Below are positions 2,651 to 56,376 of a stretch of 64,000 nucleotides of DNA, in pieces. This DNA is from Eledone cirrhosa (lineage: Eukaryota), in assembly GCA_964016885.1 (NCBI GenBank), contig OZ024742.1, positions 212,164,001 to 212,228,000 of the forward strand, read 5' to 3'. Each line of letters opens with the position of its first letter. Position 1 is the stretch's first letter. The notes below the pieces were generated by a model. The model saw only the letters and a program-made list of their open reading frames with translations, ran no database searches and was not told where the DNA came from. The translations under genes and the position numbers were made by a program.

Positions 2651-3090
2651 ACCTCCAATAATAATAATAATTGTTTCTACGTTTGGCACAAGGCCAGCAA
2701 TTACCCAGTGCATTACTGGTACTTTATTTTATTGACCCCATAATAATTGTTTCTACTTTAGGCACAAGGCCAGCAATTACCCAGTGTAATACTGGTACTT
2801 TATTTTATCGATCCCATAATAATGAAAGGCAAAGTTAACCTCGGCAGGATTTGAACTCAGAATGGCAAGGGCCGTAACTCTATACGTCAAAGCATGGCGT
2901 CCGACCCTCTACCGATACTGCCAATCCACCTCCAATAATAATAATTGTTTCTACATTAGGCACAAGGCCAGCAATTACCCAGTGCATTACTGGTACTTTA
3001 TTTTATCGACCCCGTAATAATAATAATTGTTTCTACTTTAGGCACAAGGCCAGCAAATACTCAGTGCATTAGTGGTACTTTATTTTATAT
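2651..3090 (-). mobile_element. SINE cluster: one near-complete copy plus three tandem copies of the 3' module
   Basis: Module ttgtttctac..ggcacaaggccagcaattacccagtg..ctggtactttatttta occurs 4 times. The head with a B-box-like gagttcaaatcc (minus strand) is at about 2847-2930. Confidence 0.85.
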
Positions 3091-7340: not shown

Positions 7341-8010
7341 TTCTGACTGTATTTAATGAGCAACGAATATCAAGTAATTAAAAAAAAATTAATGGCAAAG
7401 CATTCGTTATAGATGCTATTGTAGGCTACAAAGTTTTTAAAATTCTAAATCCGTCAGAATTTGGAGAAACTCATGTTAATGCTACCTCTCAGCTAAATTT
7501 CTTCATGTACTTAATGCAATCTGTTGGGGGATTCATTCTACTAAGATATTAGATAGTTATGTTTACAAAATATGTTGCCTTCTGTTCACAAAATATTAAC
7601 TTCTGTTAAGTTGTTAGATAATTCAAAAATATTAAAATCGATCTGTTTATGAAATATATTTATTTCTGTTAAGATGGTAAAAAGATATATTAAAAATGCT
7701 TTCAGAGATAGCAAAAAAATCTTTTTAATAACATCTTGTAATTTACTAGACATCAAAAGCAGTTAACCCATAACAGTAAACATTTTATAAAACAAGATAC
7801 TAGAAAATGTGACAAGTAGATCAGTCATTCATAGTTAAGATATCACACCGTACAGTATTATGAAGGTATAATCATTTGTATTCTACATAAACACTGGATT
7901 TTTTTAAAAACCTTTTTATGTGAAAAAAAAAAAAATGCTGGTAATTTATGGTAGAAAAAAAAACATAACTAAAAGAATAAATGAATTTCATTAATATATA
8001 TATATATATA

Positions 8011-8385
8011 AATTCCGACCTCACACACTTACACCTCTCCAAGACAATGTCACTTGACCGAGATCTTTGGCGCTACACAGTAATACAGAAGACCCGTCTT
8101 GCCTAAGTACAAAGCGAAACCTACAGTCAGTAGGCACCTCTAACAAAAATACACCCCTGTCCCACTACCCCCACCCCAATACACCACCCCTTTCAATGTG
8201 AAGTTATGTTGGTACCACAACATCCAGTCCGAAACAAATGAGGTCATGTAGGTGTCACGACAAAAAAACACACAGTCCACGCTGTAATGTGGCCATGTAG
8301 GTAACACGGTAAAAACCTCCCAGTCCACACTGTAAACGTGGTTGGTGTTAGGAAGGGCATCCAGCTATAGAAAACCCGCCAGACA
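8011..8385 (+). mobile_element. RTE LINE 3'-region fragment (family A)
   Basis: Nearly identical to the reverse complement of 23905-24283 and to 16138-16405. Confidence 0.85.
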
Positions 8386-8449
8386 GCATTAGGCGATTTA
8401 GCGATGTCTCTCTATAATTCTTAGTCTTTCTTTTTAGATAGATACATAG

Positions 8450-9095
8450 ATATGCTCCGATGGATGTGTAACAGTAATATACGTGAACGACAAAGCATAA
8501 ATGAATTGAGAGAGAGACTGAGCATAAGAGGAATCAAATGCTGCGTGCAGGAGAGGCGGTTACGCTGGTATGGACATGTGATGCGTATGAAGGATGACAG
8601 CTGCATAAAAAGGTGCAGAGCACTAGAAGTTGATGGAAACCGCGGAGTGGGGAGACCCAAGATGACTTGGGATGAGGTGATAAAAGCCGACCTTACCCAA
8701 CTACACCTCTCAAAGTCAATGACACACGACCGTGACTTCTGGCGTCACGCAGTAATACAGGGTACCCGACCTCCCATGGGTACATGCTGAAGCATATAAA
8801 CAATATGCCCCCCCCCCCCCCACCGCAAGGTGGTCGTGGAGGTGCCACGGCAAAAAAGCACCCAGCCCACACTGTAAAGTGGACGTGTAGGCGCCACGAA
8901 AAAGCACCCAGCACTCACTGTAAATGAGGTTGGTGTTAGGAAGGGCATCCAGCTGTAGAAATCAAGCCAGATCAGTTCCTGTATGAGCAAGGCATGGTCA
9001 GCCGACCAGACACTGCCCACAACAGGACAACCCGTCTAACCCATGCTAGCGTGGAAGAACGGACGTAAAACGGTGATGATGATGATGATGATGAT
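8450..9095 (+). mobile_element. 5'-truncated RTE LINE: RT C-terminus, downstream UTR and (TGA)n tail
   Basis: ORF MLRWMC...ERRLRWYGHVMRM...RGVGRPKMTW is the typical RTE thumb/C-terminus; the element ends in gatgatgat. Confidence 0.9.
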
Positions 9096-9198: not shown

Positions 9199-10882
9199 TC
9201 ACATCCACTCTTCCCTGCTTGCAAGGGTGGGACGGGTCTTATTCAGCACAGCATCTCTCCACTCGTCACGGTCCTTCGTCATCTCCACCGTGAGCTTCAA
9301 CGATCTGAGGTCTGTTCTCACCACCTCCGCCCATGTTTTTCGTGGTCTACCTCTACCACGTCTTCCTTCAACTGGCATTTCCTGGCACTTCTTCACCCAT
9401 CGGTCATCCTCTTTGCGCATCACATGTCCATACCACCTCAGTCTCCTCTCCCGTACACTACATTCTATCCCTCTCAGACACAATTTCTCTCTCAACACAT
9501 TCATGTTGGGTCGTTCACGCACATTTACACTGCACATCCAACGGAGCATGCTTGCCTCATTTCTCTCTAGCCATCGCATATCCTCTGCAGTTGCTGCCCA
9601 TGTCTCACTACCATGCAGCATCGTGCTCCTCACAGAGGCATCATACAACTGGCCTTTCGTACGCAGGGAGAAACCCTTCTTCGTCAGCAGAGGAAGCAGC
9701 TCCCTAAACTTCTTCCAACCCGTCCTTATTCTAGATACTATGGCCTCGGAACACCCTCCTCCCATGCTAATCTGATCTCCTAGGTACTGGAAGCTATCCA
9801 CCACTTCTATAGCACCCTCCTGCATTTGAAAAATGTGTCTATCAATGCGACTTCTACTGTCTAATTTCCCTGTACATCTACTGCATACATATTTCTCCCT
9901 ACCTGTTAGTTTGCCTGCTATCCCGCTACATCTCTTGTGTACCCAGGATCTGCATTGTGTGCATTTTATAGAATTTATGCCAGTTCCTTTTCTGCATATC
10001 AAACATGGCCATTTCCCTGACGGAATCAGAGTTTTGTCCCCTTTTCTACTCATCAACACTTTTGTCTTAGCTAGGTTCAATCTCAGTCCTCTTGCTTACA
10101 ACTGCTGTTTCCATAGCCAGAATTTATTCTCTCGCTCCTCTACTGATTCTGCTATAAGAACCAGATCGTCAGCATAAGTATAGTGGCTTATTTTTCTCTA
10201 AGAACCTCTCTTGCAATTGTCTCACCAAGAAGAGGGCATCTGTTGTACTCTTCCCAGGCACAAAACCAAACTGCATCTCATCTAGTTTGACCCTTTCTCT
10301 AATTAGTTGTGCTAATATCCTTTCTGCCACTTTCATAACCTGATCCATCAGTTTTATACCCCTATAATTGCTCCTCTCCAGAGCATCCCCTTTACCTTTG
10401 TAGCAATTTATGAGAATACTGCTGCACCAGTCTTTGGGTACGACACCACCATATATAGCCTGATTGATGATGCGTGCAACCAGTTTAGTGCCTACGTCCC
10501 TTGATGCCTTCAGCATCTCAGCAACTATTCCCGATGGTCCAGCAGCCTTACCATTTTTTATTTCCTTAATCGCCTCTTGGACCCTATATTCGTCAATCTC
10601 AAAAGCTGGTCCCTCTGTCGGATCTACTAAGGGTAATTTCTCTCTCTCCCATTCGTTCTCCACATTCATCAGTCTCTCATAATGACATTTCCAGGCCTCC
10701 TTTTTCTGGTCATTCGTGACAGTAAGTACACCGGCATCATTCCGGACACATTTATCTCCAACAACATCCTGATTTGCATTGACACACTGCCTTGCAATGT
10801 GGAACACTGCACGCCTCTGATCTTCCCGTCGCAGAACATTGGCAAACCGCCTACTCTCAGCCTCCCTGCGTGCTAAGTACAC
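9199..10882 (-). pseudogene. RTE ORF segments 2-3: reverse transcriptase with inserted PHD-like Cys/His finger
   Basis: Two ORFs in different frames. CLIC..CTQC..WVHKRC..CSRC lies between the YADD region and YLG. Confidence 0.9.
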
Positions 10883-10998
10883 CTGACGTCTCGCTTCTCT
10901 CTTAGCGGCTGTATATTCTTCCCTACTCCCACCCTTTTTCCAAGCCTTCCATGCTAGTCTTTTGTCTCTAATGGCCTATCTACTGTGCTGTTCCACCA

Positions 10999-11967
10999 TC
11001 AGGTCACTCTCTGTCTGGTTGGAGCTCTGCTCCAGCCACAAGTTTCATCAGTAGCCTGTAGCAAGTTGTCACGTAAGAAATTCCAGTTATTATCTATGTC
11101 ATACATCTCTAAATCGTCATATACATCTTGAAGGGCTTTCCTAAATTTGTATTTTAGTGAAAGGTCTTTTAGCTTCCAGACCTTTCTTCTCCACACCTTC
11201 CTGTATGTCTCATTCCATCTCTTGCATACTGAGATATCACTAACGACTAACTTATGCTGTGGAGTACATTCTTCCCCAGGGTATGCCTTGGTATTAGACA
11301 CTATCTGCCTGTCCCGCTGCCTAACTAGTAAGAAGTCAATCTGGCTTATGTGCTCACCAGATTTGTAGGTTATTAGGTGATTGGCAGGTTTCTGGAAGTT
11401 TGTGTTGCAAATAGTCAATGTACCAGCATCACAAAATTCAAGAAGTCTCACTCCTTCATTTCTTGAACCGTAACCGTGCCCACCATGTACCCCAGTGTAA
11501 CCATCCTGGAGCTGTCCAACATGACCATTGAAGTCCCCTGCTAGCATAACGATGTCTCCGTCCTCTGTCATTGCGGTTGTTTGTAAAAGTTGCTCGTAAA
11601 AGCAGTCTTTCTCCTCTTTGCCTAGGCCTGCTTGGGGAGCATAGGCAGAGATGATTGTCAGTAGTCTCCTGCCTACAACTAATCTAAGCTTAATTATTCG
11701 ATTACTAACTCGAACTACCTCTATTGTCTTACTGATCCATTTCTCAGCCAGGAAAATGCCTACTCCCCCTAACCCATCATCCTTACCTACCCATAAACTA
11801 AAGCTAAGATGTTTGCCTACAAGTCTCGCAGAGGCACCTCTCCATCTCACCTCTTGCAGGCAGCACACATCCACATGCCTTCTCTCCAGCATCTCCGCTA
11901 TTTCAGCAGATCTACCTCTGAGAGTGCCAACATTAAGTGTTGCAACTCTGAGATGCGACATCTTCAT
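10999..11967 (-). pseudogene. RTE ORF segment 1: apurinic-like endonuclease domain
   Basis: 322-aa ORF with exonuclease-endonuclease-phosphatase motifs; ends by frameshift at the RVT/WW motif. Confidence 0.92.
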
Positions 11968-12442
11968 ATTTTATTGTTGTTCCTATTTGTTGCTGTGCTG
12001 ATAAGCGTTTTGGCATTGATACACTGGTTGGATGCCTTTCCTAACACCAGCGCCACTTTACAGCATGGACTGGGTGCTTTTATTTGTGCTACCAGCACTA
12101 GAGAGGATGTATTACTAGACTCAAGGGCCCTCTCTACCCCTCCATTTTACAGCACGGTCATAACCCCCCACCCCCCCAAAAAAACCCATTTATTGACACG
12201 ACACACACAAACACTCATGCATACAAACTACAAACACACACGCCACTCACACACCAACACTCATTCATGCATACAAACACACACACCACGCACACACACA
12301 CATATATATATATATTACCAGCAGTACTGATACAAAATCAAAATCATGTCAACTGTTGACTTTTCCCAGTCCAGTTCAGTTTTTATATAATAATAATAAT
12401 AATTATTATTATATATAATATATATATATGTATATATATATA

Positions 12443-14090: not shown

Positions 14091-16137
14091 CTAGAAAACA
14101 AAAGAAATTTAACACATTAGGCACAAATTTTGTCATTCAAATTCTAAATTAATATCAGAAAAACAAAACAAAAAAAATAATAAAATGGGGGCAAAGGATG
14201 TAAATTTCCCTAACTATATAAATTGTATAGTACAAGATACTAAAAAATATAAATCGTGTATATTCTATAAACAAAAGGATGAAGATAAGTATCAGTATAA
14301 AATGATTACTGTATAAATCCCACCTTCAATATAAATATATATATATATATGGTCCTACAGTATTTATATTCCACATGCTTATATTTTTAAAGAGACCATA
14401 AATAAGACTCATACAGTGGGTACGTCTACAAAAATTAATAAAAATGTAAAATATATATAAATCTTAATTTCAACTATGGTTTAAGAAAAACGAAATTGAA
14501 TTGACTATTCCTTTTCTTAAATTTCCAACTTGGAAAGAGCAAGTGATAGGGGACATAACTTTTGTAGACAATATTTTATCTCCCTTTTATATTTGCATTA
14601 TATTTTTAATGTTATGGAATCTAATCCTGGTTTAATTGTGGCGCAATGCCTTCGCTATTTTGTCCGCAGAGTGCAACTGAGATAGACCGCCTAGACTAGT
14701 AATGTAGAATTTGCTTCATCTCCGCCTTTTCTTACTTTCGCTATTTTATTTTCTCGTATTTTTTTAAATTACTCAAACGTTAATGAATTGTAAATTTCTT
14801 TGAAGATGAACTGAGGAGCATATGCCTCTTTTAAAACTGTTGGTCTTAAAATCAGAGTAAAGGCACATTTATAATTTAAAAAAAAACAACAACAACAACA
14901 ACAAAAAACCCAATAAATCTTACATTTCAATGTAACATACTTAAATTAAATCTGATACAATTATTCACACTCACATATTTGGGAACTGATGTGATCTAAG
15001 ATCGTGTATTGAAACGTGGAAGGATCGTATCATTTAACAACACAAACACTGGAACATTCATTTTTAGTATTGTTAATATGAAGCACCGTGAGACACCACT
15101 CTTTTATTCATTTTTAGTTTATTTATTTATAGTACTGTCTACTTTGAAGTCACCAAAAGTTTCATAGTATTTCTGCGGCCTGGTCATCGACAAGGGTTTG
15201 GGGGGGGGGGGGGGGTTTACACTTCGTAGTAAGCAGTACTATTAAGAAAACGTATGAACAAAAAGTTAATGTAACTATTTTTGCATATTTTTAATAGTCA
15301 ATATGATTGGTCTACTCTATGATTGCTTAAGTTCCAACATACGGTCTCAGATCAAGTCACTTGTCAAACAAATACTACAGATTTTACATACATTATATAT
15401 ACAAGTACAACATTTATTTTCCGGCAACTGATGATCCAGCACTTCCGTTAATCCGGATATAATTATGAGAAGACACTAGAATTTCATACGAATCCCCAGA
15501 GTAATGCACAATGTAATCACATTTGTCAGGAGAGTACAAATAGATAGATAAGAAAATGTAAAAAATAAATAAAATAAGGGGGGGGGGGGGGTACAAACAC
15601 CCACATGTCCCCCTTTCTTTTATTTTATTTTCTAATCTATCTATTTGTTCTCTCCTGACGAAAGACGTAATATCCGATACATTGAACTTCTTTTCCCCTC
15701 TTTCATCCAAATGCGAACCTAATAACGATAATTGTTTTTGTATATCTGTGCTTGACATTTTTTTAATTATATGTGTGTCAACGATCAGGTCTATTCTTAT
15801 TTAGTCACTATTTCACATTCAATTATCAAACACAATAATGTTATTTTTATATATTCTAAACATATATTGTTGTCTTAAAGCGCACCCCATCCCCTACTCC
15901 CACAAATTGCATTAACTAATTCTATTGTTATTGTATTCGAAACAAGGGAAATAACTTATACAAATAATGAATTATCTTTCTTGGAAATTCTCATTTGCTG
16001 GACATTTATGACAATTTTTATTCATTCATACTGTTCTTTTTCTCAATTCAAACAGAAGACATAGTAATATAATTTATTTTATGAAGGAAAGTTTTAATTT
16101 GAATATGAAAAATGTAAAATGACAGATTTTATATTAC

Positions 16138-16510
16138 TACTACAGTCAGTAGGCATCTCTAACAAAATACACCCCCGTCCCACCACCCCCACCCCATCCA
16201 CACCGCCCCTTTCAATGTAAAGTTATGTTGGTGCCACAACATCCAGGCCGAAACAAATGAGATCGTGTAGGTGTCACGACAAAAAAACACACAGTCCACG
16301 CTGTAATGTGGCCGTGTAGGCAACCCGGTAAAAACCTCCCAATCCCACACTGTAAATGTGGTTGGTGTTAGGAAGAGCATCCAGCTGTAGAAAACCCGTC
16401 AGACAGTCCTATGCGAGCAAGACAACCACTCTTGCCTCAAGTGGGAAAACTCCCGTCCAAACCCATGCAAGCGTGGAACATGAACGTTAAATGATGATGA
16501 TGATGATGAT
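16138..16510 (+). mobile_element. RTE family A 3' end with (TGA)n tail
   Basis: Near-identical to the reverse complement of 23807-24172. Confidence 0.9.
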
Positions 16511-18514
16511 AATCATGGGTGATCTCATGTGGGTTGGTATTAAAAGAGTTATATCTCTCCATCTCGTCTTCTGTATTACTTAACATGAACATGTCCCTCT
16601 CAATTACCCTTCAAAAGACAAATTTTGTAAGCTTGGCAATGGGCTTGCGACCTGTCCTGGGAGGCATGGGATGGAGGTACAAAGGTTGCGTATCCTGAGA
16701 CCTCAGAGAGGGTCTGGAAGGTAGTAAACGTTGACAATTGATAACTGAAACGTTACAACTCTTACAAAATATCTATATGTAACATTGGAGTCAACTATAA
16801 GTCCCTGCCTAATAATATTTGGCATTGCAAAAAGTAAGAAACGAATAATTCAAACAGTTACAGATTTTTCTTTACAAAAACAATTTATTACTTCTATTTT
16901 AGCAAATACATTTCATGTTACTCTACTATTACTGATATTTCCACTAATGAATAACATTTATGGTTACTCGTCCTGCCAATCATATCCAAATTTGCAAACT
17001 TCACTATATAGAATGTTACAATATATCATCCTTTTTATTCTAATATGTTGGATTCCTTTGTCAGTCTCACAACTCTTATGTATTCCAGAAATTTAACAAA
17101 TACTTAGTAAATAGTTACCAAGCGTTATCTACTCATTAACTTTTCAGTATGATTTTAATCAAAATTATTCTTGTTAGCATGAAAATATGTATCTGCATGC
17201 ATGCTTTCATGCACGTGTGTGTGTATGCATGCAACTATGTGTGAGCAAATAAGATGATCTCCAATGTGTCATATAAGCTATTATAAAACCAGTTCTGTAT
17301 ATGTTAATCATATTGCAGCATGCACAGATAAAGTACATAAGATAATTTTAGTGTTGTAGCATTATTACAATATATATATATAGACACAAGACTAGTTGTA
17401 TGGTTAGGAAGTTTACTTTCAACTTCATTGTTCTGTGTTCAATCTTATTGCTGAAGTGACCACTACTGTATTCTTATAAGTGGAATTTGTGCAGAAGCCT
17501 GTTGTATATATCTGTGCTTGTGTGTGGCCATGGTACTTATTCTGTGAGATGTATATAACTATGTTTTTAATGTAGTGGTGTAAAATTGTGTATCAAATTG
17601 CTCACTTTACATAAAAATGTAACAGCCATTTAATACAGATTGATAAAATAAGTATTGGGAGGTTGATAAATCGACTCCCCCACCTCCACCGCAGCACATA
17701 CATTAAAGGTGGTGCTCCATCATAGTAATAGCCCAATGACTGAAACCAGGAGAGATGGGGAGATAATATGCAATGCTGTCAGTGAATTTGAAAAGCATAA
17801 GATTTGAAAATGATCTTTAAAAATAACTGCCCTTGGTTTTCATATTGGAGGAGCTGAAATGTTTTGTCTTTTATTCTCCACATGATTCTTTTATTTTGTA
17901 CAAAACAAATCTAATAATGGTAATTAAATTATCTAAAGCTTTCATATAGTTTAAAAGATAAAATGTGTTGCTACACACCAACATGCACAAGCTGCTGTAA
18001 TGTAAGCCCTCCTCCTTTTTAGGAAAAAAATAAAGTTCAAAGAAAAACAAAAAATATGAACAATATTAGCTGAATCTTCTTTTCTATGTGTAGTCATAAC
18101 ATTGATAGTTTTGTAGAAACAACAGGAAGGGTGTGGGAGTGTACAAGTGTGTGTCAGAAAGGAACAGGCAGTAATTTAACACCCTGTGAAGAGTGCAACC
18201 TGTGGGTGTACAAAAGAATATAGTGATATTCATGGTTAACTGACAGAAGATGCCCTTTAAGTATATTAGGAGCAGGAGATAATATATTTGACAGTGGGAC
18301 CACCATCAGAGACTATGGGCTCCTGTGTACAACCTCTAGATATAAGAGATAAGATATGTTACATTATAACAACTGAATGAAGCATTGTTAAACTTAGTAT
18401 ATATTTTAGAATCAAATCTCTCAAGTGTTGCTTCAGGTGTCATGGTTACATAGAATGAGAAAATCTCAGAAGATGAACTACTTACAAAACATGTGAAACA
18501 AAGATAAATATTAT

Positions 18515-18746: not shown

Positions 18747-19509
18747 GCATATTAAATTACAGAAAATCTGAGACAAGTAAAGGACCAATTGGTAGGATCT
18801 TTTTATAAATTTGGAGGGAATGAAGACAATGTGACAAAATAAAAAAATTGTATACAAGTGACTAAACACGGCATCAAAAATAACTAGTGGAATTTGTAAA
18901 AAAACAGGTCTACATCAAAGAAACATAAAAGTAAGAATAAACAAAGCAGCATTAACTAAAGTAAAAATGTCATTCCACTACAACAGTATTCACAATATGA
19001 TCAATTGATTCTAAAACATTACTTCCCGTCATATTTGATAGATCCAACAGGGTTATGAAGTAAATAGTTAGATACCTAATTCTTGTGTTAGTTAAGTATC
19101 AATAAATATTCAACTCAACAGTATGAATTGTTCATCTTAAACTTTCTGAATATAAAAATAAACGTGGCACTAGAGAAACTTAGGAGAGGTTACCGACCTC
19201 ATTGTATATATAGTTTTGGTGTGACAGGAAACATGGCTATATTTTATATATTCAGGAAGATATTTCAATAATGTTTCATCTATTTATATTTCATATTTAA
19301 CTTTTTGTATACAGCATAAGTAAATCATTTATTTTTTCGCAATAAACTGAGAAGTAGATGTTTAAAAAAAAGTTGTTCATAGCTGAATCTGTTTTCCACC
19401 TTCAATAATATATTTGTATTGCTATTACAATTTAACACAATCCATAATAGAAGAAACCCACGACCACCGTCACACACAAGTTAGGAGCTATCACTTTAGT
19501 ATAATATAG

Positions 19510-19696
19510 TTGTTTCTACTTTTGGCACAAGGCCAGCAATTACCCAGTGCATTACTGGTACTTTATTTTATCGAACCCGTAAGGATGAAAGGCAAAGTTA
19601 ACCTCGGTGGGATTTGAACTCAGATCATACAGGGAGGTAACTCTATGCTTCAAAGAATGGCGTCCGACCCGCTACCGATAATGCCAATCCACCGCC
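19510..19696 (-). mobile_element. Full-length tRNA-type SINE with target-site duplication
   Basis: Flanked by ttta(g/a)tataatatagt at 19495-19510 and 19697-19712; has A/B-box-like head on the minus strand. Confidence 0.9.
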
Positions 19697-19884
19697 TTTA
19701 ATATAATATAGTGGCAGTAAAATAATGCACTCTCCTCCCGCCCTCAAGCAGGGAAAAGTGGACGTAAAATGATGATGAAGATGATATTTTATATATATTT
19801 ATATATATACATATTTATATATATTATATATATACATATATATATTATATATATACATATATACATTATTTATATACATATGTA

Positions 19885-20370
19885 TTTAAGTAACAGCTGT
19901 ACTAAGAGTGGGAAATGAAATTTTGTTTCATTTTTTCCGTTTATAGTTTTCGGTGCACCCGGCCGATTAACCCACTCGATATGCAAATTGGGCTACTCAG
20001 CCATTAATATGCATAAGGAAAGTATATACTTTCGGACGTTCAACTATCTGACAGTAAGGTATACGTTGCTGACGATAGCTAACAAGCTAGAAACTAGTAC
20101 AGCGTTCCTTTGTCAGTGTTGAACAAACGAGCAACGGTGGTTGCCAGACACTACGGCTTAATACGGGATGTTTGTTTACAAACACACCGAGCATTATAAT
20201 AAATGTTCGGTGAATCCAGACGTACATATATATATATGTGTGCATGTATATATATATATATACATACTACTGTACATCTGTATACATATATGTATGTACG
20301 TGTACATACTTATATTTGAGTAACAGCCTTACTAAGAGTGGGAAATGAAATTTTGTTTCATTTTTCCATT

Positions 20371-20374
<4 letters not shown>
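19885..20374 (+). mobile_element. 430-bp-period non-coding element with terminal direct repeats and one hammerhead (retrozyme/Penelope-associated type), inserted in (TA)n
   Basis: taacagc..actaagagtgggaaatgaaattttgtttcatttt at 19891 and 20321; CpG-rich interior; HHR at 20063-20105. Confidence 0.75.
20038..20124 (+). ncRNA. Type I minimal hammerhead ribozyme
   Basis: Stem I ACGUUG/CAGCGU; core CUGACGA (20069-75); stem II UAGCU-AACA-AGCUA; GAAA (20090-93); palindromic stem III A-CUAG-U; predicted cleavage after GUA at 20099. Stem I is extended by AAGG/CCUU, CUGACA/UGUCAG and GUUCAAC/GUUGAAC. Confidence 0.9.
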
Positions 20375-21880
<1,506 letters not shown>

Positions 21881-22322
21881 AAGGCGGGTAAAATTCCCGA
21901 GATCCATGGACGCGTTCTCTCCAGCGGTCTCTGTCCCTCATTATCACTGCCATGTCCTGCATCTCCAACAGACCAGTGTCTGACCTTAGGGCATCAACAT
22001 ACGTCAACCTTGGTCTTCCTCTTCCAGTGTGTCCATGTAGGGGCTCCCAAAGGAGCACTGAGTGCAATGTCAACTCTGGATGTCGGTGAGCATGTCCAGC
22101 TAACCTCAGTCTCCTGTGTCACTTTTGAGCTGATTTTTGGGATGCTCCCATATAGCTCTGAGTTTTTCATCCTAAAAGACCAAGGTTAACATATGTTGAT
22201 GCCCTAAGGACAGACACTGGTCTGTTGGAGACGCAGGACATGGCAGCGATAATGAGGGACAGAGACCGCTGGAGAGAACGCGTCCATGGATCTCGGGAAT
22301 TTTACCCGCCTTAGATAGATAG
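21881..22322. mobile_element. RTE-like LINE 3' end (second family) present as an inverted duplication
   Basis: The minus strand encodes [36 protein letters not shown]. 21881-22017 is mirrored by 22176-22312, followed by an (AGAT)n tail. Confidence 0.85.
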
Positions 22323-22884
22323 AGATATATATTATATATATACATATATATTATATATATACATATATATATTATATATATACATATATATATTATATAT
22401 AAACATATATATATTATATATAAACATATATATTATATATATACATATATATTATATATAAACATATATATATTATATATAAACATATATATATTATATA
22501 TAAACATATATATATTATATATAAACATATATATATTATATATAAACATATATATATTATATATAAACATATATATATTATATATAAACATATATATATT
22601 ATATATATTTTATATATACATTATATATATTATATATATACATTATATATATTATATATATACATTATATATATTATATATAAACATATATATATTATAT
22701 ATATTATATATATACATATATATATTATATATATACATATATATATTATATATATACATATATATATTATATATATACATATATATATTATATATATCAT
22801 CATCATCATCGTTTAACGTCCATGTTCCACGCTTGCATGGGTTTGGACGGGAGTTTTCCCACTTGAGGCAAGAGTGTGTATATA

Positions 22885-22949
<65 letters not shown>

Positions 22950-23048
22950 GTATATGTATATATATGTATATATATATATATGTATATATATGTATATATA
23001 TATGTATATATATATGTATATGTATATATATATGTATATGTATATATG

Positions 23049-23129
<81 letters not shown>

Positions 23130-23147
23130 GTATATATATATATATGT

Positions 23148-23178
<31 letters not shown>

Positions 23179-23263
23179 TATATATGTATATATATATATA
23201 TGTATATATATATATGTATATATATACATATATATACATATATATATATATGTATATTTATAC

Positions 23264-23330
<67 letters not shown>

Positions 23331-23353
23331 CATATATACATATATATACATAC

Positions 23354-23386
<33 letters not shown>

Positions 23387-23397
23387 CATATATATAC

Positions 23398-23462
<65 letters not shown>

Positions 23463-23545
23463 CATATATATACATATATATATATACATATATATACATA
23501 TATATATATACATATATATACATATATATATATACATATATATAC

Positions 23546-23640
<95 letters not shown>

Positions 23641-23800
23641 CATATATATACATATATATATATACATATATATACATATATATATATACATATATATACA
23701 TATATATATATACATATATATATATATGTATATATATATATATGTATATATATGTATATATATGTATATATATCTGTATATGTATATATATATGTATAAT
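22323..23800. repeat. (TA)n-rich microsatellite containing a short RTE family A 3' tip (22797-22875, minus)
   Basis: Directly visible; the tip is identical to 23807-23882. Confidence 0.95.
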
Positions 23801-24830
23801 CATCATCATCATCATCGTTTAACGTCCATGTTCCACGCTTGCATGGGTTTGGACGGGAGTTTTCCCACTTGAGGCAAGAGTGGTTGTCTTGCTCGCATAG
23901 GACTGTCTGGCGGGTTTTCTACAGCTGGATGCCCTTCCTAACACCAACCACATTTACAGTGTGGGACTGGGAGGTTTTTACCATGTTGCCTACACGGCCA
24001 CATTACAGCGTGGACTGTGTGTTTTTTTTGTCGTGACACCTACACGATCTCATTTGTTTCGGCCTGGATGTTGTGGCACCAACATAACTTTACATTGAAA
24101 GGGGCGGTGTGGATGGGGTGGGGATGGTGGGACGGGGGTGTATTTTGTTAGAGATGCCTACTGACTGTAGTACGTTTTACTTTGTATTTAGGTAAGGCGG
24201 GTCTTCTCTATTACTGAGTACCGCCAAAGATCTCAGTCCAGTGAAATTGTCTTGGAGAGGTGTAAGTGTGTGAGGTCGGAATTTATCAGGTCGTCCCAGG
24301 TTTTTCTGAGTCTGCCTACTCTGCGGCTACCGTCTATCTTTATTGCCCTGCACTTTTTTATACAGCTGTCGTCTTTCATGCGCATCACGTGACCATACCA
24401 ACGTAGCCTTCTCTCGAGTAAACAACATCTGATCCCTCTTATTTCTAATTTTTCCCTTAGTTCGTTTATGCTTTGCCGTTCGCGTATATTACTGTTACAC
24501 ATCCAGCGGAGCATGCAAGCTTCGTTCCTCTCTAGTCTGCGTATATCCTCTGCACACAATGCCCAGGTCTCACTGCCATGCAACATTGCTGTTCGTATGC
24601 AGGCATCATACAGCCTGCCTTTCATTTTTAGGGAGAACCCTTTAGCGGCTAATAGTGGTATAAGCTCTCTGAACTTTTTCCATCCAGTTCTGACTCTAGC
24701 TACTGTACTTTCAGAGCACCCTCCCCCACTGCTGATTTTGTCACCCAGGTAACGGAAGCTGTCCACTATTTCTATAGATCCCTCTGCGCAATTGAAAGAG
24801 CTAGTATTTGGTGGGCACTTGCTGCTACTT
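23799..24830 (-). mobile_element. 5'-truncated RTE LINE (family A): RT C-terminus, UTR and (TGA)n tail
   Basis: ORF 24233-24841 IEIVDSFRYLGD..ARVRTGWKKFREL..MLHGSETW..RLRWYGHV. Confidence 0.93.
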
Positions 24831-41000: not shown

Positions 41001-41745
41001 ATAGTGTATACCATAATCTATTACATAGAAACCCCATAATACAACTGTTACAGCTTGATGATGTCTGTCATCCCAATACCAGTAACTGGTGTAGGCTAGT
41101 GGTTGGTATATTGGGAGGTGGCGGCAGAAAATGGCATACATAGTTTAACTCTTTTTTTAAGTGCTCTGGATCAGATCTTTAGGGTTGATTGTAGGAGTAT
41201 GGTTTACATTTGCTCAGGTTTGTGGTTGGCTTTAGTTTAATTCTGGTTGTATTTACATTCAAGTTAAGATAATTGGTGGTCTTAGTTAAATACAGACAGA
41301 AATATGTGTGATCCTGGTTATAAGCATAATTATTGTTCTGATAGAACTATTATTATTTTAGAAATAGTGTGAGAATCACAATTTGTTACAATGTCTTCCT
41401 TGAACAAGAACTCTAGTCATTCTAAATTAATGGCCATAAAATGAAAAAAAAAATATGGAAAGTTACAGCTCACACCTATGCAGGTTTAACTGGCCTTCTA
41501 CAAAGTTGCATCTCATAGGAGGTTTCTTTGGAGTTTTAATGTTAGGAACACTCAGAGCTATCACGAAAAACAATATGAAATTAAGCATCTTGCTCAAAAA
41601 CGCAATGTGCTGCCTGGTCCAAGAATCAGACCCACAATCCCATGAGTCCAACATCCTAACTGCTAGGCCATACACTTTCACTAATGGGCATGTGTTGAAT
41701 TGAAGCTCCAAATATTTTTCTTAGTTAGCTTCCATTTTGCAGCAC

Positions 41746-41885
41746 AGTTACGTCCCTTTACGGACTGAGTTCAAATCCTGCCGAGGTTAACTTTGCCTTT
41801 CATCCTTACGGGGTCGATAAAATAAAGTACCAGTAATACACTGGGATAATTGCTGGCCTTGTGCCAAAAGTAGAAACAATTATTT
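41746..41885 (+). mobile_element. 5'-truncated tRNA-type SINE
   Basis: Reverse complement of 46852-46985. Confidence 0.88.
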
Positions 41886-43899
41886 TAACTGCTTTTCTTT
41901 CTAGCTTTAGGCCACACCACACACATGGCACATTGATAGAAAGATAATAAAAAAAAAAGTTATCAGTTCAGGTAGCAACCAACCAACTGGGAAGTATACA
42001 CTATAACTTCTGCATTTTTTTTTTTCTATTAGTTTAAACTAAAAATGGAAAAACAATAACGGCTTTGTTCTGAATTAAGATATTATCTATAATGTCCAAC
42101 TTATACAATATTATTTTTTATTCATGCAATTATAAACCAGAATGATATAAAAATGGTGAATATCTTTTTTTTAATGCTGACTTTATTTCAGAAAGGGAGC
42201 TTTAAGAAATAATGATATAAATAACTTAAACTTAATGCATAACACCTATTACCAGCTTAGCATCTGGACCAAAGGGGTTTATTTATTTATCATATGAATT
42301 ATGGTTTATGATTTCCTGTTCAGTTTATAGAGAAAAATATCTATCAACATTAATGCTTCACTTCTCACTCTTCCAGGGTTCCTGAAAAAGTGGGAAAGCG
42401 GGGAAAAAAAAATGAATAAAAAGAGAAAACAACAATTTTGTAACATTCTTTCTGATTTCCTTGGAGGCAAAAAGCAGCAGGCTGTTGTAGACAATGTGAT
42501 TTTGTTGGTGTTTTACTGAGAGACACTTCAAGAAAATGTTTCTCAGCTGTGCAAAGCTTACTCATATGTTCTTAACACCCCCACCCAAATAACAAATTTT
42601 GTTCTTTTGCAGCACCCAAAATATAGTTCCAGGGGAAATTGTGTTAGGGGGTTTTGGTAACATAGGAATGATAGTAGTAACATTTAATGAAAAGAGAAGC
42701 AACAACTATTTACATGTAGCATACACCTTTAAATATTGTAATTTATTTTCTAGTTATTAAGAATTAATTGAAAACACATATTCTTATTTTTTATGAAGGC
42801 TTGCAGTAAATCGAAATAGGAAATAGTTGCAAATATAAGTATAAAAAAATAAACCCTATCTGTCATTTATTTATTACTGATGCTATATATTGAATGAATA
42901 CTTTTAAATAGAAAGTAAATAATGTTCATTGTGGAACTGAGCATGGACTTGAAACATTAGTAATAAAAACAAAAAGAAATAATAATAATAATCATAATTA
43001 TTATTATCATTATCGTGTTACTATTACTACTATTTATTAGTGTTGCTATTTTCACTACTATTTTCATGTATGACTCATCCAGATTGGCATCAATGCAATA
43101 GCAAATAACCCAGTGATGCTGTAGCTATAGCTGTGACTGCTAAAATCAGTAGTAGTAGCAGCAGCAATGGTAGTCCATTCAGCTTTTATCTGCGCACCTT
43201 TTCAACCTTTTCTCTGAAGAATAAATGTTTACACCCAACATACACTGAGAAAGAAAATAACTAACTACCATCTTTAAATCATTGATAACTTTAGTTATGG
43301 GATAGCAAGATAATTTAACTTGAATTGATTTCTTAATTTAAAAATGGGGCAAATATTAAAATTCCATGTTAACATTAGTATGTGATAATATTGTTAAATG
43401 CCGCAATGATTTTACTAAATTCAGGAAATAAATGTGAAAATGTTTTAATTCAGACAGCAACAATTAAATTTTAAAGGATAACTTATTAGCAAACAAACGT
43501 CTTGTATACAACTATTGTTATTTTTCTTTCTATTCAAGGGAGGTTAAATGAAATCAATTGATTGGAATTGCATAAGCCAAAACCATAAATAACACTTGTA
43601 TTTCTAAGTACACAAAACATTTTTATTTATAGAATTAAATTAAACTAATTATAGACACAACTATATATTGACAAGTTAAAAGTTTGTTAGGTAGTGAGAC
43701 TAGATATAAACATAGATTTGATTACAAATAGGAAGAAAGACTAGCACAACATACAGTATTAAAAATAATTGTGTATACAAGGCTAATATCAACTATGTTA
43801 GTGCTGTGCACGGTAGTTTAGTGGCTACTCTAGCAAAGTGTGAGAACCTTTCAATCATCATTAAGTGATTGTGCAATACCTTTCAGATACACAGAGCTA

Positions 43900-46181: not shown

Positions 46182-46851
46182 ATCATTTATTTGTAGACTT
46201 ACTCTATATATTTTTTCTCTGGCAATATTAGGACAACATGACCCTCCCCAAATATAACAATATCTGTTTCAACACACGACTTCATATCAAAAACCTTGCA
46301 AAACAAATACATTGCCGCTGTTTGTAAATTAATTTTCAAACATAACTAGAAACAAAAGGTGTTGATATAACTGTGTAACACCTTGGGTAAGTACCTGTTA
46401 GTATAGCCTTGGGCTGACCAATGCTTTGTGAGTGAATTTAGTATCAGAAACTGTAAGGAAACTTGTATAAATGTATTCATTTTGCATTTCACGTTGCCAG
46501 CACAGGCAGTGATGTTTGTTTATTTCCCACATAAACAGTTGTCCTGATGATGATGATTTGTAACTAAATAAGAATTACTATTTATAAATAAGCAACCTAT
46601 CTAAATTTACTTTCACCTTATCAGCTAACACAGAATTTCTTTTCCAAAGCTCCCCAGTGTGACAAGCGCATATACTATGGAAGACCATACTAGATACAAA
46701 TATGTTTCAGTAATACTAACCTGAAGATTTACATGATAAACACATGGCAGATAATATATAATACATTTTATACTCGGAAACTATGGCCATTATGGAAAGG
46801 AATGCATAATTTGAATCATTAAAATGCATAAAAGAAGTTAAAAGTAATAAT

Positions 46852-47033
46852 TGTTTCCACTTTTAGCACAAGGCCAGCAATTATTCCAGTGTATTACTGG
46901 TACTTTATTTTATCGACCCCGTAAGGATGAAAGGCAAAGTTAACCTCAACGGAATTTGAACTCGGGCCGTAAAGGGACGTAACTATGCTAGAAAGCATGG
47001 CGTCCAACCCTCTACCGATACTGCCAATTCACC
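46852..47033 (-). mobile_element. tRNA-type SINE with 17-bp target-site duplication
   Basis: aagttaaaagtaataat at 46835-46851 and 47034-47050. Confidence 0.92.
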
Positions 47034-52865: not shown

Positions 52866-52984
52866 TCTATATATGTATATATATATTTATTAAAATAACA
52901 GATTAAAGTTTAAGCTTATCGAGCCCTCTTTCGATTTTAGTTTTCAATTTTATTATTATTACTATGTATATATATATATGTATA

Positions 52985-53301
52985 TACAATATTAAATAAA
53001 TGGAAACTATATTTATAAAACCATATTTATTTCATTATATATATTTCAGGGATATCATATTAACAATATGCTATGCCTTCCTCAGAAAAATACAATATAA
53101 ACAGTTTTGAATCTGCCAATTCAACTTTTCAAATACAAGTCGATGTTGTTACGGTATGTCAAATCTATTTATCTATAAAACTGTTTATATTGTATTTTGT
53201 CTGAGGAAGGCATAGCATATTGTTAATATGATATCCCTGAAATATATATAATTAAATAAATATGGTTTTATAGATATAGTTTCCATTTATTTAATATTGT
53301 A
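52985..53301. repeat. Foldback with about 124-bp inverted arms, each carrying a hammerhead-like motif
   Basis: 52985-53108 is mirrored by 53177-53301. CUGAGGA (53201-07), long stem II, GAAA (53239-42), then UAUAUAUA. Confidence 0.8.
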
Positions 53302-53387
53302 AATATACTCCAAATACTTGTCGAGTGCTTTTATATCAGTTATAAATATTTACTAGTTGTAACCCAACAATTTAAATATAACTTTCC

Positions 53388-54616
<1,229 letters not shown>

Positions 54617-55517
54617 GTTGGCAGACCTCGCAAGGACTCTATATCTTTGATATATTGTTTTTGTTTATGCCACGAAACTACGTAGTCGAGGAATTTAGGA
54701 GCAGTTTAGGTATGATACATTTTATTACCAATTATATCTAAATGTTTCTTCTCTCTTCATAATGTATTTTTAACTCTGATACTGGTTCAGTCTGGTTCAA
54801 ACTGAACTGGTCTGTCCCAGTCATTCATTGAGCAACATCGGTGAAGTTGGCACCCTTAACTCGCAGTTGGGTGCGGATGCATTCATGTATATATGTGTGT
54901 GTCCGCATGTATCTGTGTGTTTCTAAATATATTAATAACTCCCTCTGGTCGAGCAATCTTTGAAGTGTGGGGACAACTGGAAAGCTTCCATTACTCGTAC
55001 TTCTCGCCTTCTTCACTACCTCTTCTACGGCCTCGATATGAATACCCCCTCCGCCTCCGTGGTATTTTCTTCGTGGTTATAAGAGGCTTAGCTCTGTTTC
55101 TCGACCGTTATATCGCGTGACTATCTCCCCCTCCGCCTTTTGGGATTCTTTCTCACGTCGTGTAGACGCGTTCTTGAGACTAGTAAAATGAGGTATCCTC
55201 TTGATAAGTTGGCAGACCTCGCAAGGACTCTATATCTTTGATATATTGTTTTTGTTTATGCCACGAAACTACGTAGTCGAGGAATTTAGGAGCAGTTTAG
55301 GTATGATACATTTTATTACCAATTATATCTAAATGTTTCTTCTCTCTTCATAATGTATTTTTAACTCTGATACTGGTTCAGTCTGGTTCAAACTGAACTG
55401 GTCTGTCCCAGTCATTCATTGAGCAACATCGGTGAAGTTGGCACCCTTAACTCGCAGTTGGGTGCGGATGCATTCATGTATATATGTGTGTGTCCGCATG
55501 TATCTGTGTGTTTCTAA

Positions 55518-55523
<6 letters not shown>
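54617..55523 (+). mobile_element. 1.5 tandem units of a 591-bp non-coding hammerhead-containing repeat, inserted in (TA)n
   Basis: 54617-54932 appears identical to 55208-55523 (offset 591); HHR at 55196-55283. Confidence 0.85.
55196..55283 (+). ncRNA. Type I hammerhead ribozyme, U3-A8 core variant
   Basis: Stem I UCCUC/GAGGA; core UUGAUAA (55201-07); stem II GU(U)GGCA/UGCCAC with a long loop; GAAA (55265-68); palindromic stem III A-CUACGUAG-U; predicted cleavage after GUC at 55278. Confidence 0.75.
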
Positions 55524-55560
<37 letters not shown>

Positions 55561-55567
<7 letters not shown>

Positions 55568-56376
55568 TGGAATAAATGCTCTGAAACAGCGATATATATG
55601 TGAATATAGACATAGAATATTCGAAAATATTCTGTATGTTTATAATAAACATTTTGAAGACCCAATCGCTATAGAATAGAATACGTCACGTATTACAATT
55701 AGATTCTCGATAAAAGCAAGGGAAGTAAATCTACGCGTTTCATTCTTATTAGAAATCGTCAGGACTACATATCCAGTGCTTTCATCGAGAATGACACAGC
55801 TAGAGACTTATAGAACACTTAGCTGTGTACAGGAACTGGTTTGAAAGAGCGGTTGCCGGTCCGGCAGAAATTAGAAATTGGAATAAATGCTCTGAAACAG
55901 CGATATATATGTGAATATAGACATAGAATATTCGAAAATATTCTGTATGTTTATAATAAACATTTTGAAGACCCAATCGCTATAGAATAGAATACGTCAC
56001 GTATTACAATTAGATTCTCGATAAAAGCAAGGGAAGTAAATCTACGCGTTTCATTCTTATTAGAAATCGTCAGGACTACATATCCAGTGCTTTCATCGAG
56101 AATGACACAGCTAGAGACTTATAGAACACTTAGCTGTGTACAGGAACTGGTTTGAAAGAGCGGTTGCCGGTCCGGCAGAAATTAGAAATTGGAATAAATG
56201 CTCTGAAACAGCGATATATATGTGAATATAGACATAGAATATTCGAAAATATTCTGTATGTTTATAATAAACATTTTGAAGACCCAATCGCTATAGAATA
56301 GAATACGTCACGTATTACAATTAGATTCTCGATAAAAGCAAGGGAAGTAAATCTACGCGTTTCATTCTTATTAGAA
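55561..56376 (-). repeat. 2.6 inverted copies of the 311-bp hammerhead unit
   Basis: Reverse complement of the downstream array. Complete HHRs at 55725-55768 and 56036-56079; a third is truncated in stem II at the junction. Confidence 0.95.

Follow-up and report, generated by a model that had tools for sequence, protein, structure and literature searches.

We consider it probable that the 490-base insertion described here, 1.14 units long and decayed, stems from a very abundant, non-coding type I hammerhead family, likely a non-LTR retrozyme, and that it was probably placed into a TA microsatellite by a Penelope-like reverse transcriptase-endonuclease. The insertion lies in a stretch of 64,000 nucleotides, the whole of which was analysed and is referred to below as the window. 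That a repeat family with a conserved hammerhead exists is well supported, and in terms of classification it is a new family of the already known non-LTR retrozymes. The copy itself is probably a dead-end offspring, because it has decayed by ~3–4%, holds one ribozyme and, by prediction, can close its helix III only in a dimer. As a class, such hammerhead repeats come as no surprise, being known across animals. What the family adds is anatomy bearing on an open step of the life cycle: contigs share a 3' end into (TA)n, a partial tandem extends across the cleavage site, and there are covarying subfamilies.

Anatomy and folding of the insertion

The insertion consists of one full unit of 430 bp (19945–20374, + strand), which is non-coding, strongly folded and has a GC content of 36.7%. 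Ahead of it lie 62 bp (19883–19944, + strand) that repeat the 3' end of the unit in part, being truncated on the 5' side; the left edge of this pseudo-LTR-like repeat is blurred by the adjoining TA tract. The counterpart of this piece is the 3' terminal repeat (20313–20374, + strand), recognized from the direct repeat and from contig exits, whose end is the family's common 3' terminus into (TA)n. The two direct repeats start at 19883 and 20313, 430 bp apart, end at 19944 and 20373, and differ by four substitutions and one indel in 62 columns. As target DNA we regard the TA microsatellite on the left (19790–19885) and the TA-rich tract on the right (20371–23798), which contains other insertions further along. 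A preliminary description of this DNA had already pointed to imperfect direct repeats of ~60 bp at a distance of 430 bp, to flanking TA tracts and to an insertion of about 1.1 units of a retrozyme-like family, all of which is borne out. A target-site duplication, which exceeds 4 bp when present in retrozymes, would be masked here by the TA tracts on both flanks. The unit contains a TA-rich hairpin segment (20217–20314, + strand); judging by the depth of the public sequencing run X1, at least 20276–20314 is family and not target DNA. The depth at 20277–20310 (1.4–2.2 million) is as high as elsewhere, so this TA-rich stretch is at least partly family sequence; 20217–20272 was skipped by the mapping as repeat.

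Even the TA-tract-free part of the element (19886–20216) is strongly structured, with a folding z of −6.6 against 60 shuffles. The ribozyme sits in an extended stem I arm (20038–20124, + strand), in which the 6-bp helix I is followed by a 3-nt/1-nt internal loop (loop 1), as seen from the pair probabilities and from comparison with the 311-bp ribozyme described below, and by three further helices (20056–59/20107–10, 20048–53/20111–16, and 20038–44/20118–24). The pair probabilities of these three helices are mostly 0.94–1.0, with one pair at 0.53. When folded as a circle, the 430-bp unit is predicted to reach −133 kcal/mol with 65% of its bases paired, with stems I and II formed and the hammerhead free. 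A cofold of two copies of the arm is predicted to yield a double-hammerhead with a 6-bp helix III (−61.2 versus 2 × −29.3 kcal/mol), and the palindrome pairing between the two ribozyme copies would be the 6 nt at 20093–20098 (+ strand). The 430-nt monomer, in contrast, is predicted to be unable to close helix III, in a folding program that also forbids a 2-nt loop. No Pfam match was obtained for the 67-aa frame at 19919–20119, and a tRNA gene search yielded none.

Two further sequence matches within the element were noted. The octamer ATGCAAAT occurs exactly at 19981–19988 within the unit and five times in the window (both strands), with no variant among those listed for the family; newt satellite 2 has an snRNA-type promoter. 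At 19888–19902, 15 bases equal the 3' half of the Hydra-2_Ajap hammerhead in the available part of a published table (PMC8557442 supplement). This match is probably due to chance, because the family majority differs at 19898 and the 5' half is absent.

The hammerhead motif

The hammerhead at 20063–20105 (+ strand) is real, beyond chance. It consists of a stem I of 6 bp (one of them U.G), the core CUGACGA, a stem II of 5 bp with a 4-nt loop, GAAA, and a 2-bp helix III inside the palindrome 20093–20098; the cleavage triplet is GUA, and the hammerhead consensus position predicts self-cleavage between 20099 and 20100 (+ strand). The type I signature of CUGANGA, GAAA and a UH core with three helices is thus complete, with helix I open and helix III closing in the dimer fold alone. 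A type I descriptor (stem I of at least 6 and stem II of at least 4 bp) run on both strands had its sole match in the 64-kb window at this site, and zero matches in 400 dinucleotide shuffles of the 47,837 non-microsatellite bases (both strands). For the motif and the three helices extending its stem I, both named in the preliminary description, sequence, descriptor and folding agree, and the assignment as a type I hammerhead of canonical metazoan form rests on pattern search, parse and the covariation at 20066/20102. The attribute "minimal" given there does not apply: the helix lengths are those of the canonical metazoan hammerhead, for which the available part of the source gives a helix I of 6 bp, a helix II of 4–5 bp and a 2-bp palindromic helix III (PMC4209133). 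The min-HHR of Penelope-like elements (PLEs) is characterized in the same part by a short helix I, a long helix II, G10.1-C11.1 and little or no helix III (PMC4209133). Measured against these characters, the 430-bp motif is no min-HHR, having 6 bp in helix I, 4–5 bp in helix II, U-A or U.U at the base of stem II, and 2 bp in helix III.

The base of stem II, U-A in this copy or U.U, lacks the usual G10.1-C11.1. A U10.1-U11.1 combination is reported from active natural hammerheads (PMC3088659, available part), and U.U at this place is also listed for the axolotl HHR_Amex2 (PMC7229834, available part). An Rfam search of the 430-bp element identified no hammerhead family at the gathering score or at E values up to 10, and the hammerhead motifs of the 311- and 591-bp units of the window are likewise missed by Rfam. 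The matches that were obtained are TA-hairpin microRNA models, all under the gathering score, and were rejected. A back-splice-like junction at 20099/20100, which had been suggested as a check, would be invisible, because cleavage and religation restore the genomic sequence.

Family abundance in public sequencing runs

Homologous copies, on whose existence the preliminary description had made its reading depend, are abundant in the public runs X1 and X21. Four of the 23 listed runs (X1, X4, X6, and X21) were mapped on 19886–20370 at 80% likeness, the small-share runs X5 and X7–X20 being left out; 53–55% of 47 sampled words were found in three runs, from one sample of organism A. Run X1 contains 9,594 matching contigs among 17,142,217, with a summed depth of ~1.3 million that is not a copy number, as overlapping contigs inflate it, and the single contigs listed mostly have a depth of 10–27. 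In run X21, which comprises raw RAD reads under the same species label as X1, 74,205 of 12,467,656 reads match (0.6%, in a type of library that is biased), and 79% of these continue unlike the element. Matching contigs number 124 in run X6 and 31 in run X4 (organism B); the X4 matches are partly near-identical (3 other letters in 148), a degree of likeness at which related species and shared material are indistinguishable. From these counts we infer a family size in the order of magnitude of 10^4 to 10^5 units. The element had been called solitary, which is correct within the 64-kb window and incorrect as a property of the family. The exact copy at 19883–20374 was not seen in the four mapped runs because no matched piece spans the stretch, and these runs likewise showed no long tandem array of the 430-bp unit.

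At least 46 X1 contigs and two X6 contigs exit the element at 19945 into (TA)n. This exit site is where the right end of the present copy lies, since 19944 matches 20373. At the same position the X1 depth is 614,826, which means that many family units read through their own 3' terminus into their own start. The terminal repeat segment, with a summed X1 depth of 1.1–1.3 million versus a median of ~1.3 million (range 0.66–1.9), is not over-represented. The read-through at the terminus and the near-even depth fit arrays, without proving them. Joints that appear to go back from 20306–20309 to 19886 were rejected as proof of arrays, as they are explained by the direct repeat itself, and the piles of X21 read ends at 19919, 19986–19989, and 20352 were put down to restriction, as they coincide with three AATT sites. 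Contigs of X4 and X6 ending at 20098–20100 were rejected as a cleavage signal because contigs cannot show RNA ends, and the depth of X6, a run of unrecorded kind, was not read as expression.

At 19945, directly after the family's 3' terminus, this copy has A where 99.7% of the X1 depth has C; the A may have arisen by private mutation, or it may be a scar left when the template switched from one unit to another. In one X6 contig, the sequence before 19946 is unrelated.

Variation and age

The analysis of variation covered 40 of 80 variant positions, without the columns of X4, whose depth was low. Five of the variable places listed are inside the motif, namely 20066, 20102, 20073 (N7), 20083 (loop II), and 20089 (11.1). 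The helix I partners 20066 and 20102 change at matching frequencies (35%/37% in X1, 86%/86% in X6, and, for the two directions of X21, 93%/91% and 45%/46%), and the pair occurs as U.G, A-U or G.U. As judged by these frequencies, the pair covaries across the family in three runs. Position 20089 (11.1) is U in 95% of the X1 depth, giving U.U at the base of helix II. No variant of the invariant core bases is among those listed, an absence that is weak on its own because 15 of the 49 X1 variable places are outside this set. At least two to three subfamilies with linked variants are visible (for example at 20055–20062 and 20110, and a different stretch after 20127), and their shares differ between runs X1, X6, and X21.

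Both terminal repeats carry T at 19924/20354, where C makes up 92% and 86% of the X1 depth; sharing T against the family majority suggests that both repeats stem from one template. At the three differing repeat places covered by the listed variants, the family state is found in one repeat each. Private variants of this copy, defined by another letter in at least 90% of the X1 depth, are present at 11 of the 40 positions, a lower bound of ~2.6%. Together with the divergence of ~8% between the terminal repeats, this places the decay of the copy since insertion at about 3–4%. By the same kind of sequence evidence, the 311-bp array, in which 19 of 19 units are identical, and the 591-bp pair are younger than the 430-bp copy, in line with the greater age that had been ascribed to the latter.

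Other hammerhead units and repeats of the window

The 311-bp hammerhead array (55561–62590) contains 20 + strand ribozyme sites from 56376 onwards and includes a portion in inverted orientation, which extends 40 nt beyond the main 3' terminus, an overrun resembling the 30–40-bp PLE tail described in the available part of PMC8557442. In its youth, homogeneity and organization as a 20-unit array with an inverted part it is unlike the 430-bp copy. The 591-bp unit (54617–55523) is present in 1.5 copies, which as a pair are identical over 316 bp, and ends in TA with a microhomology of 6 nt. Its hammerhead has a long stem II insert, a palindromic helix III and the variant core U3-A8 for C3-G8, a variant that is on record (PMC4209133, available part). 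On the 3' side of the ribozyme strand, each of the window's three hammerhead units runs out into TA. In addition, a head-to-head inverted pair is present at 52981–53305. Both arms contain a CUGAGGA...GAAA core together with an AT palindrome, and the pair resembles two truncated ends of PLE type whose hammerhead is degenerate.

Whole-unit alignments of the 430- and 311-bp units did not score above shuffles, 35 of 200 and 24 of 200 of which reached the same score, and the sole score above all shuffles (430- versus 591-bp unit) is due to a 25-column TA/TG-rich patch. At the level of whole units, the family is therefore separate from the 311- and 591-bp units, as the preliminary description had it. 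Its stronger claim of independence holds in so far as whole units are unalignable and fails for the ribozyme, whose build is common to the 430- and 311-bp units: both have a 7-nt core, a 14-nt stem II domain, a 3-nt/1-nt loop 1, a palindromic 4-nt insert and GUA, and the U.U stem II base of the 430-bp family majority is shared with the 311-bp ribozyme. The two differ at 8 of 31 positions (20069–20099); two of these differences vanish with the family majority, four make up two double-sided changes within helix II, and the remaining two fall in the palindrome. A 30-letter pattern built from both ribozymes, which it matches by construction, has 1 + 22 sites and none in shuffles, and zero matches among metagenome and viral contigs. 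The common build may reflect either kinship or the shared constraint of the canonical type I form, in which loops 1 and 2 interact according to the available parts of PMC4209133 and PMC6155905. A cofold of the 311-bp ribozyme gave no clean double-hammerhead in the model.

The window further contains a broken RTE-like LINE (9199–11970, minus strand) with fragments at 8008–9095, 16138–16513, 23796–24830, and elsewhere, and dispersed copies of a SINE-like repeat (320–416, 2651–3088, 19506–19707, 41736–41896, and 46830–47033). The SINE-like repeats of the window (e.g., 19506–19707) may resemble octopus repeats, which would point to an octopus as the possible host. The middle of a minus strand frame at 15417–15800 reads like a protein exon, with no Pfam match.

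Alternative origins

Instead of belonging to a free-standing non-coding family, the insertion could derive from an autonomous Penelope-like element, as its truncated 3' end (pseudo-LTR). Such ends are known to carry type I hammerheads, to form 5'-truncated partial tandems and to prefer (TA)n (PMC4209133, PMC8557442, available parts), and a U.U-based stem II is common among those of the Hydra clade (14 of 25). This origin is nevertheless unlikely. The 430-bp period has no coding frame, beyond the 3' terminus the sequence resumes at the unit's own start (X1 depth of 614,826 at 19945 versus a median of ~1.3 million), and the depth does not rise towards the 3' end. Moreover, the 2-bp helix III and the extended, structured stem I are retrozyme-like, whereas most Hydra-clade ends have a helix III of 4 bp.

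A second explanation treats the unit as a satellite monomer that spread at the DNA level, by unequal exchange, extrachromosomal circles or microsatellite-mediated recombination, with the hammerhead as a conserved passenger. The high and near-even depth along the unit would fit large arrays, TA-rich segments occur inside and around the unit, and the ribozyme of an Anolis PLE was dispensable for insertion in vitro (PMC11167929, available part). However, the common 3' end into (TA)n (at least 46 contigs) together with a variable 5' end fits target-primed reverse transcription better, and each of the three hammerhead units has TA at its 3' end, as read on the ribozyme strand, which makes a spread at the DNA level quite unlikely.

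It is very unlikely that a LINE of the RTE type, and not a Penelope-like element, mobilized the retrozyme, even though the RTE-like element at 9199–11970 has endonuclease, RT and PHD domains, its fragments are found across the window, and LINEs have been named as possible helpers (PMC7229834, available part). In a self-comparison of the window the unit shares no sequence with LINE ends, and the partial tandems, the fixed internal start and the inversion with a 40-nt tail in the 311-bp array are PLE traits. Finally, an AT-rich region full of microsatellites might yield motif and repeat by chance, a notion that the missing Rfam hammerhead match and the low-complexity surroundings might favor; it is refuted by zero matches in 400 shuffles, the z of −6.6 without the TA part, thousands of related contigs and the covarying pair.

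Proposed mechanism and candidate helper

For the preferred reading, a retrozyme placed by a Penelope-like enzyme, the following life cycle can be envisaged. Tandem copies elsewhere would be transcribed into multimeric RNA, in which neighboring hammerheads would pair via the palindromic helix III; cleavage after GUA would then set free monomers of 430 nt, as the cofold and the example of related repeats suggest. A host ligase may then close these monomers into circles. A dimeric double-hammerhead mode of this type is described for newt and axolotl repeats in the available part of PMC7229834. A Penelope-like enzyme would nick (TA)n, and its reverse transcription would begin internally at a fixed position, which is 20373/20374 in this copy. 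Copying would then pass the cleavage site and one full period and halt after 1.14 units, leaving the 62-bp direct repeats, after which the single-ribozyme copy would drift. Having one ribozyme only, the locus is unable to release a monomer by itself. Because the cDNA extends over the cleavage site, which lies 274 nt from the point where it starts, a linear monomer that had been cut should not have served as template, and either a circle or a multimer left uncut should have done so; a circle is not established as the template, since uncut RNA is the main substrate in the available part of PMC11167929. Activity of the 430-bp hammerhead is also not a given, because its stem II lacks G10.1-C11.1 and eight of nine Xenopus retrozyme dimers showed no cleavage in vitro (bioRxiv 2026.07.22.740005, available part).

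The insertion follows the PLE type in its pattern: a partial tandem creates a pseudo-LTR, the 3' end is fixed, and the target is (TA)n. Partial tandems and (TA)n targets are described for PLEs (PMC8557442, available part), and the enzyme of an Anolis PLE initiates internally on AT-rich targets in vitro (PMC11167929, available part). PLEs have also been proposed as helpers of animal retrozymes, without demonstration, and a vertebrate-centered preprint of 2026 states in its available part that other groups were not tested (bioRxiv 2026.07.22.740005). No Penelope-type RT or GIY-YIG match was obtained in 143 of the 192 candidate frames of the window, nor in the element. As for the type of PLE, the available part of the PMC8557442 supplement gives U.U above a short (4-bp) stem II in 14 of 25 Hydra-clade families, as counted by eye, and a (TA)n preference for nearly all Hydra-clade families tabulated. 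Hydra-1_Obim, the sole octopus Hydra-clade family tabulated there, is outside these 14 and has a different ribozyme (PMC8557442), and a comparison by eye of the 3' ends of two families, Hydra-1_Obim and Naiad_Obim, with the 430-bp unit gave no match. Cephalopod Naiads have long been inactive, according to the available part of a published account. The Hydra clade as helper of the 430-bp family is a lead, no more.

A bolder reading, possible in our view yet rather doubtful, is that the element belongs to one of several unreported, probably cephalopod retrozyme families, with tens of thousands of copies, a common fixed internal start of reverse transcription and (TA)n as target. Their U.U hammerheads would point to a Hydra-clade PLE as helper, and copies longer than one unit with once-identical ends would record the copying of circular RNA. 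If true, the question of how animal retrozymes move would gain a template site and a target, both defined, and a candidate enzyme. Whether or not this reading holds, the anatomy of the family and the presence of two sister families within 64 kb make the form of the template (circle or uncut multimer) and the identity of the helper testable. In addition, ~0.6% of the reads in one reduced-representation library amounts to a large part of a genome that is unrecognized by Rfam. No earlier report of a cephalopod hammerhead retrozyme family was found in a partial literature search, two relevant supplements lying outside it; in its available parts, a paper on O. vulgaris repeats (PMC13282606) does not contain the word "ribozyme" in text or supplement, and a paper on the giant squid counts 235 Rfam hammerhead hits without describing them.

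Comparison with known systems

Like the min-HHR (Cervera & de la Pena 2014, PMC4209133, available part), the 430-bp motif has a type I topology, a palindromic 15.2–16.2 region and a predicted action as dimer. It differs from the min-HHR by its helix I of 6 bp, its defined loop 1, its helix II of 4–5 bp and its U-A or U.U. With PLEs, above all those of the Hydra clade and Naiad/Neptune, the element shares the partial tandem or pseudo-LTR, the (TA)n target and the fixed internal 3' end (Craig et al. 2021, PMC8557442; Frangieh et al. 2024, PMC11167929; available parts), as well as a sense-strand type I hammerhead upstream of the fixed end (PMC8557442). Unlike the PLEs described there, the 430-bp unit has no RT or GIY-YIG frame, and its helix III comprises 2 bp and not ~4. 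Neither a PLE tail nor an inverted 5'-truncated copy was identified at this locus, nor was a tail found in the family among the loose ends listed, a check from which 547 were left out.

The closest resemblance is to the non-LTR retrozymes; a fixed 3' end into (TA)n, as in this family, is not described in the available parts of PMC7229834 and bioRxiv 10.64898/2026.07.22.740005. The present locus, with one ribozyme in 1.14 units, corresponds to a "monomer" and is unlike the "active" retrozymes of Li, Clavereau & Pollet 2026 (bioRxiv 10.64898/2026.07.22.740005, available part), as retrozyme arrays carry two or more ribozymes head-to-tail. Retrozymes are furthermore expressed as linear and circular monomeric RNA. 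In other respects the family agrees with them: non-LTR retrozymes are non-coding, measure 150–450 bp, have a GC content below 50% and contain one canonical type I hammerhead per unit (Cervera & de la Pena 2020, PMC7229834, available part), all of which is also true of the 430-bp unit with its GC content of 36.7%. A short palindromic helix III, a hammerhead that is free in the circle (for the 430-bp unit, in the predicted fold), a very high copy number, here apparent from the matches in X1 and X21, and the occurrence of solo copies, in the known families beside arrays, likewise belong to the known retrozymes (PMC7229834; bioRxiv 10.64898/2026.07.22.740005; available parts) and link the 430-bp family to them.
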